NCBI RefSeq assembly: GCF_003334355.1
Contig: NZ_QOWP01000008.1
Direction: 5' to 3' (one strand)
DNA from: Escherichia coli
GTDB taxonomy: Bacteria > Pseudomonadota > Gammaproteobacteria > Enterobacterales > Enterobacteriaceae
Length of the DNA stretch: 64,000 bases
The stretch's first letter is position 1; each line of letters begins with the position of its first letter. This document shows, in pieces, positions 59,405 through 62,175 of the stretch. The translations under genes and the position numbers were made by a program. The notes beneath the pieces were generated by a model. That model was not told the DNA's origin. It did not search any database and worked only from the letters and a program-made list of their open reading frames with translations.

Positions 59405-59483
59405 CCCCAGGGAACCTTTGTTACCGCTATGACCCGGCCCGCGCAGAACGGGCCGGTCATTATCTCATCGTGTGGAGTAAGCA

Positions 59484-60305
59484 ATGTCGTGTGAAGAACT
59501 GGAAATTGTCTGGAACAATATTAAAGCCGAAGCCAGAACGCTGGCGGACTGTGAGCCAATGCTGGCCAGTTTTTACCACGCGACGCTACTCAAGCACGAA
59601 AACCTTGGAAGTGCACTGAGCTACATGCTGGCGAACAAGCTGTCATCGCCAATTATGCCTGCTATTGCTATCCGTGAAGTGGTGGAAGAAGCCTACGCCG
59701 CTGACCCGGAAATGATCGCCTCTGCGGCCTGTGATATTCAGGCGGTGCGTACCCGCGACCCGGCAGTCGATAAATACTCAACCCCGTTGTTATACCTGAA
59801 GGGTTTTCATGCCTTGCAGGCCTATCGCATCGGTCACTGGTTGTGGAATCAGGGGCGTCGCGCATTGGCAATCTTTCTGCAAAACCAGGTTTCTGTGACG
59901 TTCCAGGTCGATATTCACCCGGCAGCAAAAATTGGCCGTGGCATTATGCTCGACCACGCCACGGGCATCGTTGTGGGTGAAACGGCGGTAATTGAAAACG
60001 ACGTATCGATTCTGCAATCTGTGACGCTTGGCGGTACGGGTAAATCTGGTGGTGACCGTCACCCGAAAATTCGTGAAGGTGTGATGATTGGCGCGGGCGC
60101 GAAAATCCTCGGCAATATTGAAGTTGGTCGCGGCGCGAAGATTGGCGCAGGTTCCGTGGTGCTGCAACCGGTGCCGCCGCATACAACCGCCGCTGGCGTT
60201 CCGGCTCGTATTGTCGGTAAACCAGACAGCGATAAGCCATCAATGGATATGGACCAGCATTTCAACGGTATTAACCATACATTTGAGTATGGGGATGGGA
60301 TCTAA
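59484..60305 (+). CDS. cysE: serine O-acetyltransferase, 273 aa
   Basis: MSCEELEIVWNNIKAEARTLADCEPMLASFYHATLLKHEN; hexapeptide repeats. Confidence 0.92.
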   Translation: MSCEELEIVWNNIKAEARTLADCEPMLASFYHATLLKHENLGSALSYMLANKLSSPIMPAIAIREVVEEAYAADPEMIASAACDIQAVRTRDPAVDKYSTPLLYLKGFHALQAYRIGHWLWNQGRRALAIFLQNQVSVTFQVDIHPAAKIGRGIMLDHATGIVVGETAVIENDVSILQSVTLGGTGKSGGDRHPKIREGVMIGAGAKILGNIEVGRGAKIGAGSVVLQPVPPHTTAAGVPARIVGKPDSDKPSMDMDQHFNGINHTFEYGDGI

Positions 60306-60319
60306 TGTCCTGTGATCGT

Positions 60320-60348
60320 GCCGGATGCGATGTAATCATCTATCCGGC
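60320..60348. repeat. REP-like stem-loop between convergent cysE and trmL
   Basis: gccggat ... atccggc inverted repeat with a 15-nt loop. Confidence 0.4.
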
Positions 60349-60357
60349 ATACAGTAA

Positions 60358-60831
60358 CTAATCTCTCAACAACGCTCCCGGATATCCCAGCTGCCGCCAG
60401 GCTTCATACACCACAACTGACACCGCATTGGACAGGTTCATGCTGCGGCTGTCCGGCACCATCGGAATGCGAATTTTTTGTTCAGCGGGCAGGGCATCAA
60501 GAATGCTCGCTGGCAGGCCGCGTGTTTCCGGGCCGAACATCAGATAATCGCCATCCTGATAGCTTACGGCGCTATGAGCAGGCGTACCTTTCGTGGTGAG
60601 GGCAAACAGGCGCTGGGGATTTTCTGCTTCGAGGAACGCGCGAAAGTCATGATGACGCGTAACGGCGGTAAACTCGTGATAGTCCAGCCCCGCGCGGCGC
60701 AGGCGCTTATCGTCCCAGGCAAATCCCATCGGTTCGATGATATGCAGACGAAAGCCGGTATTAGCGCAAAGACGGATGATGTTGCCAGTATTTGGCGGAA
60801 TTTCTGGTTCGTAAAGTACGATGTTTAGCAT
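60358..60831 (-). CDS. trmL: tRNA (cytidine/uridine-34 2'-O)-methyltransferase (SPOUT family), 157 aa
   Basis: [37 protein letters not shown]. Confidence 0.85.
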
Positions 60832-60886
60832 ACTGCCCCCTTAGTGCGGGGGCAGGATAGCAGAAAATTGGTGAGCAGTGCGGCCT

Positions 60887-60977
60887 TTTCCCCTCACCCC
60901 GGCCTCCCCCTGTCTCTTGATCAGGAGATCTGATCAAGAGACAGCTCCCTGAGGGAGAGGGTTAGGGGGAGGGGGCG
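60887..60977. repeat. About 90-bp imperfect palindromic element; core is two head-to-head IS50 inside-end-like sequences flanked by C-rich and G-rich arms
   Basis: 60926-60944 reverse-complements to CTGTCTCTTGATCAGATCT (19/19 to the recalled IS50 IE); 60910-60928 CTGTCTCTTGATCAGGAGA (15/19); 14-bp perfect inverted repeat ctgtctcttgatca around the centre ggagatc; flanks ccctcaccccggcctcccc and gggagagggttagggggagggggcgc. Confidence 0.55.
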
Positions 60978-60984
60978 CAAACGA

Positions 60985-62175
60985 CTATGCCGCATTCCCT
61001 TTCGCCATCGGGGCCAGTGCCGCAGGCAACTCTTTACCCAGCCCCTGCACCAGCGAATCTTGCGTAATTTCGCTGATCGATTTCGCGCCAGTCAGCGTCA
61101 TCGCCACTTTCATCTCTTTTTCGATCAGATTTAGCAGGTTAGCTACACCCGCCTGGCCCGCTGTTGCCAGCGCATACAAGAAAGCACGACCCAGCAGTAC
61201 GGTGTCGGCACCGAGCGCAATCATACGCACGACATCAAGCCCGTTACGAATTCCGCTATCCGCCAGAATGGCTATATCACCTTTCACCGCATCTGCAATA
61301 GCAGGCAGTGCACGGGCGGAAGAGAGTACACCGTCCAGCTGGCGGCCACCGTGGTTAGAAACCACAATTCCATCAGCACCAAAACGTACTGCATCGCGCG
61401 CATCTTCCGGATCGAGGATCCCTTTGATCACCATCGGGCCATCCCAGAAATCGCGGATCCATTCAAGGTCTTTCCATGAGATGGACGGATCGAAGTTATT
61501 CCCCAGCCAGCCGATGTAATCTTCCAGTCCGGTCGGTTTGCCGAGATAAGCTGAGATATTACCTAAATCATGTGGACGACCGTTCAGGCCCACATCCCAC
61601 GCCCATTGCGGATGTGTCACCGCTTGCAAGTAGCGGCGCATTGCCGCGTTCGGGCCGCTCATACCTGAATGCGCATCACGGTAGCGTGCGCCCGGTGTCG
61701 GCATATCCACGGTGAAAACCAGCGTCGAACAACCCGCTGCTTTTGCTCGCTCCAGCGCGTTACGCATAAAGCCGCGATCGCGCAGTACATAAAGCTGGAA
61801 CCACATTGGGCGCTTGATGGCTGGCGCGACTTCTTCAATCGGGCAAACGGAAACCGTCGAGAGAGTAAACGGAATACCATGCGCGTCCGCCGCTTTGGCT
61901 GCCTGAACTTCGCCACGACGCGCATACATGCCACACAAACCCACCGGAGCCAGTGCCACCGGCATCGACAATTTCTCATTAAACAGCGTCGTTTCCAGGC
62001 TTAAGTCGGACATGTTTTTCAGAATACGCTGGCGCAGCGCCACTTCTGACAAATCTTCCACGTTGCGGCGCAGCGTGTATTCAGAATATGCACCACCATC
62101 CATATAGTGGAACAGGAACGGCGGCAGAATGCGTTGCGCTGCGGCGCGATAATCGCTGGCTGCGGAAATAATCAT
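60985..62175 (-). CDS. lldD: L-lactate dehydrogenase (FMN-dependent), 396 aa
   Basis: [43 protein letters not shown]; alpha-hydroxy-acid oxidase family. Confidence 0.9.

Follow-up and report, generated by a model that had tools for sequence, protein, structure and literature searches.

The window, a 64,000-nt stretch of Escherichia coli DNA (contig NZ_QOWP01000008.1), contains the genes lldP, lldR, lldD and trmL (yibK), in this order and all on the − strand, convergent with the cysE-gpsA-secB-grxC-yibN genes on the + strand. The trmL product matches the NCBIfam TrmL equivalog over its full length (357.6 bits for a cut-off of 282). Upstream, lldD ends at position 60985, so that lldD and trmL are separated by a spacer of 153 nt in this allele. 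Read directly along the − strand, the spacer ends with TTTTCTGCTATC, followed by CUGCCCCC, GCACUAA, GGGGGCAG, a single U and the AUG codon; the two arms form a stem of 8 bp (seven G–C pairs and one U–A pair), and T60832 is the only nucleotide between the end of the stem and the trmL ATG (60831–60829). A previous inspection of the letters alone (hereafter the sequence-only reading) had drawn attention to this 8-bp stem ending 1 nt before the trmL ATG, with coordinates and spacing that are exact. The features discussed below are collected in Table 1.

Table 1. Features of the lldD–trmL region, numbered along the window
Feature	Position	Strand	Basis
trmL CDS (157 aa)	60358..60831	−	ORF list, NCBIfam TrmL equivalog, RefSeq annotation of identical loci
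lldD, upstream gene	60985..62175	−	ORF list, RefSeq annotation
Large allele-specific spacer palindrome	60890..60975	−	Fold, pattern search, distribution across genomes
Extended −10 element TGcTATCCT	60854..60862	−	Conservation in 51 species
G+C-rich discriminator GCCCCC (rest of the 5′ arm)	60848..60853	−	Position between the hexamer and the mapped +1
Inferred trmL +1 (G)	60847	−	Published mapping; first loop base, 7 nt after the hexamer
Hairpin	60833..60855	−	Sequence, folding, conservation in 51 Enterobacterales
Hairpin 5′ arm, CUGCCCCC	60855–60848	−	Sequence
Hairpin loop (7 nt), GCACUAA	60847–60841	−	Sequence
Hairpin 3′ arm, GGGGGCAG	60840–60833	−	Sequence
Shine–Dalgarno sequence UAAGGGGG	60836..60843	−	Starts in the 3′ part of the loop and takes in the 3′-arm G-run
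Position homologous to Term-seq 3′ end 3781218	60828	−	Adams et al. 2021, supplementary files 1 and 3

In-silico folding, which the sequence-only reading had proposed as a check, yields a stable stem: in a 37-nt context the minimum free energy (MFE) is −19.9 kcal/mol (z = −3.1, none of 200 shuffles being equally stable), and the stem is kept in the MFE and centroid structures of the 86-, 191- and 329-nt contexts. When perfect 8-bp stems with at least seven G–C pairs and loops of 3–10 nt are counted over the 64-kb window, five are found for 0.63 ± 0.87 expected from dinucleotide shuffles. By itself, the 8-bp stem is only suggestive, not decisive; its significance comes from its position and its conservation. 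An Rfam scan of positions 60300–61300 (E ≤ 10) found no family matching the trmL hairpin, and returned only spurious miRNA-type matches on a neighbouring long palindrome and a weak REP-like match.

The lldD–trmL spacer comes in at least six lengths in E. coli (47, 72, 145, 153, 184 and 197 nt), and the hairpin block is unchanged across all six alleles, identity between them returning about 15 nt upstream of the stem and running on into trmL. Among 5426 complete E. coli genomes, 5421 contain exactly one copy of the 65-nt block round the stem, and its identity is 99% or more in 5340. Its single-copy status in the 5421 genomes rules out an origin as a dispersed repeat of the REP, BIME or BoxC type. 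Note that the hypervariability of the spacer ends abruptly about 15 nt upstream of the trmL −10 element and that, at the other end, the last lldD codons and the stop codon also vary between alleles (GCGGCATAG vs GCAGCTTAA). Upstream of the trmL promoter, the spacer allele of the window harbours a palindrome of about 86 nt that is nearly perfect. In its core (60910–60944), CTGTCTCTTGATCAG occurs twice in inverted orientation (chance expectation 0.1), with BoxC-like arms rich in G and C on either side. Read on the − strand, the repeat is CTGTCTCTTGATCAGATCT, which we take to be the 19-bp inside end of IS50/Tn5. The full 96-nt form of the palindrome is present in 795 of the 5426 E. coli genomes, and partial matches occur, on chromosomes as well as plasmids, at the ends of IS4-family (ISEc13-like) transposase genes; the palindrome looks like a solo back-to-back pair of IS4-family terminal repeats (a MITE-like element or an excision relic) inside a BoxC-type repeat. 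The K-12 allele contains two 'HPGQ' hairpin/G-quadruplex repeats (catalogue PMC5100583).

The 5′ arm of the hairpin overlaps the trmL promoter. More specifically, a TG dinucleotide at 60862–60861 precedes the hexamer TATCCT (60859–60854), the last two bases of which (C60855 and T60854) are the first two bases of the 5′ arm. In an alignment of 51 species, T−12, A−11 and T−7 are invariant, and T−17, T−15 and G−14 are conserved at 90% or more; the invariant or near-invariant set (T−17, T−15, G−14, T−12, A−11, T−10, C−8 and T−7) defines the motif TGnTAnnnT. A TGn motif placed before TAnnnT, with the +1 located 7 nt downstream, corresponds to an extended −10 σ70 promoter. No −35 element is conserved in the 51-species alignment, hence the silence at this site of a generic −35/−10 promoter scan, which does not cover extended −10 promoters, and hence also the freedom of the upstream spacer to vary.

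In Salmonella SL1344, the primary transcription start site (TSS) of yibK was mapped by dRNA-seq at 3910889 and the ATG lies at 3910906, giving a leader of 17 nt (Ramachandran et al. 2014, PMC3963941, Table S7). The −50 to +1 string given for this TSS ends with TTTCTGCTATTCTGCCCCCG (or, cut at other points, TGCTATTCTGCCCCCG(+1) and TATTCTGCCCCCG(+1); PMC3963941); the +1 is the G that comes right after the C-run, 7 nt past the hexamer, and is homologous to G60847. As for E. coli, a trmL reporter described as carrying the 'entire 5′ UTR' starts at GCACTAAGGGGGCAG (Adams et al. 2021, PMC7815308), and coordinate transfer shows that the first base of this construct, MG1655 3781199, corresponds to position 60847 of the window. 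From the design of the reporter and its primer, together with the Salmonella homology, we infer that E. coli trmL is transcribed from the first base of the loop; given this +1, the leader of the trmL mRNA is 16 nt long. The E. coli trmL TSS was not found in the text of the Cappable-seq, SMRT-Cappable-seq and Kim 2012 supplements, nor is there a yibK entry in the Salmonella 2012 supplement, and our literature search found no prior description of trmL/yibK expression control. When the +1 is set 7 nt past the hexamer, it falls in the 5′ arm in 34 species and in the loop in the other 17, and in none of the 51 upstream of the arm, the predicted leaders being 16–23 nt long.

The Shine–Dalgarno (SD) sequence UAAGGGGG matches UAAGGAGG at seven of eight positions and is located 4 nt before the AUG; it is the only good candidate and it is carried by the 3′ arm, as the sequence-only reading had noticed. 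Its G-run is conserved at 90% or more in the 51 species, and in this locus as in 51 of 51 Enterobacterales the SD sequence is found in one arm of a stable hairpin. Since transcription starts inside the loop, the mRNA made from trmL's own promoter lacks the 5′ arm and its SD sequence is open; the basis for this statement is indirect in E. coli. The sequestration of the SD sequence put forward by the sequence-only reading thus holds for RNA begun upstream and fails for the primary trmL transcript, a TSS inside the hairpin, as indicated by the Salmonella dRNA-seq data and the start of the E. coli reporter, being the very finding that this reading had named as contradicting it. Folding energies are in line with the distinction: over the 51 species, the mean is −16.5 kcal/mol for RNA starting from the −10 element vs −3.7 kcal/mol for RNA starting from the +1. 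Likewise, opening the ribosome docking site (from the SD sequence through +12, with read-through RNA modelled from 80 nt upstream) costs on average 16.9 kcal/mol in read-through RNA vs 7.1 kcal/mol in the own transcript, read-through RNA being the dearer in 51 of 51 species; in the window, the costs are 14.1 and 7.4 kcal/mol, respectively.

A stable stem with the SD sequence in its 3′ arm is also what would be expected of a cis-regulatory element sequestering this sequence in trmL's own 5′ UTR, such as a damper, a thermometer or a ligand- or protein-dependent switch. However, in Salmonella and, judging from the reporter, in E. coli as well, the primary TSS is located inside the loop, the −10 geometry places the +1 inside the structure in all 51 species, and the Rfam scan gave no match. 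Moreover, with seven G–C pairs and −18 kcal/mol, the stem is too stable for a physiological thermometer, as judged from ROSE and fourU elements. A riboswitch, thermometer or leader element in the trmL mRNA was therefore rejected, the structure not being contained in the primary transcript and having no Rfam family. A minority of trmL-translating transcripts might nevertheless start upstream, and the 3′ end at 3781065 was retained in the 5′-UTR table of Adams et al., whose filter implies a TSS at most 200 nt upstream, inside lldD; all things considered, we regard control by an element of this kind as very unlikely.

Other enterobacterial trmL leaders were compared as well, another check proposed at the outset. 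A scan of a genome collection with TrmL returned 80 species, and in all 51 Enterobacterales leaders that contain the motif TTTyTGCTATnCT a hairpin is present between the motif and the ATG (−9 to −24.5 kcal/mol, mean −16). In these 51 species, the 3′ arm is always the SD sequence and the stem always ends no more than about 7 nt from the AUG. Neither the motif nor the hairpin is present in the leaders of Pasteurellaceae, Rheinheimera, Marinobacter, Xenorhabdus, Moellerella and Zophobihabitans, in several of which trmL abuts or overlaps the upstream ORF. More specifically, in Xenorhabdus and Pasteurellaceae, the trmL start overlaps the upstream ORF or lies at most about 9 nt from its stop codon, in an operon-like arrangement; such loci have neither the extended −10 element nor the hairpin and display an A-rich conventional leader instead, the promoter and the hairpin being gained or lost together.

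The arms of the stem differ by lineage and yet remain complementary: CUGCCCCC pairs with GGGGGCAG in E. coli, GCGCCCCC with GGGGGCGC in Edwardsiella, GCGUCCC with GGGACGC in Rahnella, GCGGCCCU with AGGGUCGC in Erwinia, GGCUCUCG with CGGGAGCC in Tatumella and CUUCGGCCCUC with GAGGGCUGAAG in Pantoea sp. IMH. RNAalifold applied to a MAFFT alignment of the leaders returned no structure, because the stems sit in different registers. Covariation was therefore assessed on a stem-anchored alignment of 38 distinct stems, to which constant anchor sequences were added. In this alignment, which is anchored on each sequence's own MFE stem and thus favours pairing, and with statistics that ignore kinship, 89.5% of the cells are paired vs 69.7 ± 1.9% with shuffled partners and 45–63% with partners slid by 1–3 columns. 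Seven of the eight pairs change on both sides, and cells with a double change number 65 vs 28 ± 3 in shuffles (0/500; kinship ignored). The outer pairs swap CG, GC and UA and stay paired, as exemplified by one pair with 17 CG and 14 GC that is 92% paired. In addition, native arm pairs fold better than between-species chimeras (−16.0 vs −13.4 kcal/mol; 0/5000 permutations, kinship ignored). Altogether, these data show that the stem has been maintained by compensatory changes. In addition, there are 29 G·U or U·G cells, i.e. combinations that pair in the sense-strand RNA alone and are mismatches in antisense RNA or in a DNA cruciform. This bears on the possibility that a dimeric regulator binds the inverted repeat, a perfect palindrome that overlaps positions −10 to +15, as a DNA operator within reach of the trmL promoter. 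The spacing of the half-sites, i.e. the loop, varies from 3 to 9 nt between species, and the arm sequences change freely with complementarity kept, the G·U wobbles being tolerated only at the RNA level; given this variable spacing and these wobble pairs, the operator reading was rejected and we grant it hardly any probability.

The invariant core pairs (alignment columns 26–28) are those of the C-run with the G-run; since a C-rich discriminator and a G-rich SD sequence each have independent reasons to exist, complementarity of the core is partly expected. One may thus suppose that the two, required for promoter kinetics and for translation, respectively, happen to be complementary and that their pairing is functionless. 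Besides the composition of the core, this would fit the uncompensated C-run changes (GCCCGC, GCCCAC) that are tolerated in several lldD-linked genera, where the stems are weaker (−10 to −14 kcal/mol), as well as the r-protein-like behaviour of the yibK mRNA and the absence of the Salmonella TSS in late stationary phase (see below), which are consistent with a functional stringent-type discriminator. Against it stand the outer pairs, which lie outside the C-run and the SD core and swap identity while remaining paired, and the better folding of native than of chimeric arms; nor does it predict that the strength of the stem should track the distance to the upstream gene, as it does (see below). 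A functionless by-product thus appears improbable to us.

The hairpin accompanies trmL whatever lies upstream. The upstream gene is lldD in Escherichia, Enterobacter-like genera, Kosakonia and Kluyvera, a gene for an MFS transporter in Citrobacter, and cpxA in Serratia, Erwinia, Pantoea, Hafnia, Edwardsiella, Rahnella, Cedecea and others, the identity of CpxA being supported by the NCBIfam equivalog (793 bits for a cut-off of 486); the hairpin is found in front of trmL in the three situations. Because it stays with trmL across changing neighbours, it belongs to trmL and not to lldD. The sequence-only reading had proposed that the structure couples the end of the lld operon to trmL; this view does not hold, as the hairpin is not lld-specific and is present behind cpxA in most Enterobacterales, which argues for insulation of trmL from its upstream operon and against a coupling between them. 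In cpxA-linked loci, the cpxA stop codon lies 35–100 nt from the trmL ATG in most Enterobacterales, a distance so short that the −35 region of trmL falls inside the cpxA coding sequence. The cpxA-yibK pair is a known flank of the Providencia O-antigen cluster, which sits at this junction, and the lldPRD-trmL arrangement of Escherichia and the MFS-trmL arrangement of Citrobacter look derived. The relocated cpxA gene of E. coli is followed by ordinary REP elements and by no related stem; the hypothesis of an ancestral cpxA terminator carried along was therefore rejected. Finally, stems are stronger when the upstream gene is close: the mean is −17.9 kcal/mol for an upstream stop codon at most 60 nt from the ATG (n = 28) and about −14 kcal/mol for one farther away (n = 16), stem strength and distance being correlated (Spearman's rho 0.56, p = 7e-5, kinship ignored).

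What happens to transcripts coming from upstream can be gleaned from published Term-seq data. In K-12 grown in LB, a BoxC-like hairpin precedes the primary 3′ end of lldD, located at 3781065 (Adams et al. 2021, PMC7815308). This hairpin is absent from the allele of the window, where, judging from its predicted fold, the large spacer palindrome is probably the first 3′ structure of the lldD mRNA. A second Term-seq 3′ end, at MG1655 3781218, lies in a flagged Rho termination region with a Rho score of 3.68, a score that is computed over 800-nt windows, so that the site of termination is uncertain and may be downstream of trmL; its intrinsic-terminator score is 1.92, below the threshold of 3 (PMC7815308). 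In the window, this corresponds to the base that opens the second trmL codon, 5 nt beyond the stem. Given that it is only 19 nt from the trmL TSS, this 3′ end most plausibly derives from RNA begun upstream, so that upstream transcripts would reach the structure and carry both arms. It also lends support to the alternative mentioned in the sequence-only reading, namely a 3′ hairpin of read-through lldD transcripts. Note that Adams et al. stated that 3′ ends with a TSS at most 20 nt upstream were discarded; their trmL construct implies a TSS only 19 nt away from 3781218, yet this end was retained (PMC7815308), a small inconsistency.

The 3′ end does not reflect intrinsic termination. In E. coli no U-tract follows the stem, the tail being UAUGCUAAAC, and a terminator scan gave no match at the hairpin site; with a score below threshold in addition, an intrinsic (Rho-independent) terminator was rejected. 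A U-tract is found after the stem in Serratia only, where the sequence UUUUUAC is terminator-like. On published data, the stem has the hallmarks of those that protect the 3′ ends of Rho-terminated transcripts. It might therefore have been selected only as the transcript-end structure of the upstream operon, i.e. as a weak terminator or an exonuclease-blocking 3′ stem after Rho action, with its overlap with the SD sequence and the promoter being a mere consequence of a very short intergenic space, devoid of any role in trmL expression. The Term-seq 3′ end 5 nt past the stem and its Rho score, the stronger stems observed when the upstream stop codon is at most 60 nt away, the Serratia tail and the fact that the hairpin is the first structure after the stop codon in cpxA-linked species all speak for this possibility. 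On the other hand, the E. coli stem has none of the attributes of an intrinsic terminator, as just described; K-12 has kept the trmL-proximal stem although the primary 3′ end of lldD is located 150 nt upstream, at a different hairpin; at the change of synteny, the stem went with trmL and not with cpxA; and a pure 3′-end element would not need a 3′ arm that is always the SD sequence nor a stem that always ends within about 7 nt of the AUG. On balance, we hold a role restricted to the end of the upstream transcript to be unlikely, while ranking it first among the alternatives considered here.

The explanation that we favour, and that we think probable, although by no large measure, is that the hairpin is an insulator embedded in the promoter, which silences trmL translation on read-through RNA and doubles as a 3′-end-stabilizing stem. 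In DNA, the 5′ arm acts as the end of an extended −10 σ70 promoter and as its G+C-rich discriminator, RNA polymerase starting at G60847, where the loop begins. In RNA, the SD sequence is formed by the last bases of the loop together with the 3′ arm. The trmL mRNA proper, with its 16-nt leader, would contain no 5′ arm and would expose this sequence, whereas transcripts coming from upstream (from lldPRD here, from cpxRA in most Enterobacterales) would contain both arms and form a hairpin of about −18 kcal/mol. As this hairpin would bury the SD sequence, read-through RNA would not serve for trmL translation. Left untranslated, the trmL part of such RNA would be open to Rho; following trimming and termination farther downstream, which appears to be Rho-dependent, the stem would provide the upstream mRNA with a stable 3′ end. 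As a result, trmL expression would depend on its own promoter only. In other words, the hairpin most likely shields trmL from neighbouring transcription rather than regulating its own message. The stem, the arrangement of promoter, TSS and SD sequence, the compensatory changes, the independence from the upstream gene and the 3′ end at the stem are observed; the lack of translation from read-through RNA, and selection for this silencing, are what we propose.

This scheme may account for a puzzling result. A trmL reporter extending from the native +1 to the trmL stop codon showed no effect of Rho (1.0–1.4-fold), which was called unexplained (Adams et al. 2021, PMC7815308), even though a 3′ end and a Rho signal were observed at trmL. 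Devoid of the 5′ arm, the reporter RNA would be translated and thereby protected from Rho. Placing the Rho site past the trmL stop codon, in a region that is likewise missing from the reporter, explains the result equally well.

A similar logic exists in transposons. In IS10 and IS50, transcripts coming from outside hold a segment complementary to the translation-initiation region and fold so as to hide it, whereas the element's own promoter starts inside the structure, yielding an mRNA that lacks the 5′ arm and is translatable. This protection of IS10/Tn10 and IS50/Tn5 from outside transcription is said to have been described by Davis, Simons and Kleckner in 1985, in volume 43 of Cell (page 379). 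The trmL locus would share with these elements both the hiding of the SD sequence on incoming RNA and the TSS inside the structure, and by analogy its hairpin would obey the insulation logic already known from them. It differs in that trmL is a single-copy housekeeping gene for a tRNA methyltransferase and not a transposase gene, in that the 5′ arm is the −10 end and discriminator of the promoter, and in that the structure has been kept by compensatory change across a bacterial order, the silencing itself being a prediction here. The leader of IS200 tnpA offers another parallel, its SD sequence AAGGGGGU being buried in a stable stem-loop (PMC4513863). As in trmL, where the corresponding sequence is UAAGGGGGC, a near-consensus G-run SD is placed in a stem, and the structure is one that guards against impinging transcription. 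However, the IS200 stem is part of the element's own 5′ UTR and represses its own mRNA, a separate terminator blocking read-through, whereas a single trmL stem, absent from the own mRNA, would do both jobs. Lastly, transcripts terminated by Rho have processed 3′ ends marked by stable stem-loops (Dar & Sorek 2018, PMC6061677; Adams et al. 2021, PMC7815308). The trmL stem resembles them by its G+C-rich composition without a U-tract, the 3′ end a few nucleotides downstream and the bicyclomycin-sensitive read-through; unlike them, it overlaps the promoter and the SD sequence of the next gene and ends at a start codon, and it is not the primary lldD 3′ end in K-12.

The G+C-rich stretch between the −10 element and the +1 is reminiscent of rrnB P1, a stringent-type σ70 promoter with a G+C-rich discriminator, all the more so as trmL also belongs to the translation apparatus. 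The discriminator is GCCCCC here, GCGCCCC in many genera and TATAATGCGCCCCC in Hafnia, the latter presumably resembling that of rrnB P1. The trmL promoter differs from rrnB P1 in being of the extended −10 type with no conserved −35 element. Judged by its composition, this discriminator suggests growth-rate or stringent control of the trmL promoter. Furthermore, in a 6S RNA mutant the yibK mRNA decreases along with those of r-proteins, and the Salmonella yibK TSS is seen in early and not in late stationary phase (Ramachandran et al. 2014, PMC3963941); both observations are consistent with growth-rate or stringent control, without being proof of it. Put together, the same 8 nt could serve as a discriminator in DNA and as an anti-SD sequence in RNA, kept by compensatory evolution across Enterobacterales, with TrmL synthesis set solely by its own growth-rate-type promoter and blind to the induction of upstream genes, be it by envelope stress (cpxRA) or lactate (lldPRD). 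We put this fuller proposal forward tentatively, as one that may well be right but for which we would not quite claim an even chance.

If insulation is indeed the role of the hairpin, trmL would provide, in a core tRNA-modification gene, a mutationally testable example of the logic described for IS10 and IS50, and would show how a tightly packed intergenic region may allow transcription to pass through a gene without translating it. If this proves general, chromosomal genes, and not just transposons, would be selected to insulate their translation from read-through, and architectures with a TSS inside a hairpin could be mined genome-wide. The locus is also a warning for annotation: an 'SD-sequestering hairpin' called from DNA alone can mislead unless the TSS is known.

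Two other structures in the vicinity deserve mention. A perfect 8-bp hairpin made of G–C pairs only, with a 7-nt loop (CCGGCCCG, 59434–59456, + strand), lies between gpsA and cysE (59484). At the homologous K-12 position, 3782582 on the − strand, there is a very strong Term-seq 3′ end with a score of 46938 (Adams et al. 2021, PMC7815308), and the hairpin probably marks the gpsA terminator or a cysE leader structure. Finally, the region between the convergent 3′ ends of cysE and trmL (60300–60349) gives a sub-threshold match to the Rfam family naRNA4, a REP-derived RNA (18.8 bits, E = 1.1), which suggests that a REP-type palindrome is present in this convergent terminator region.
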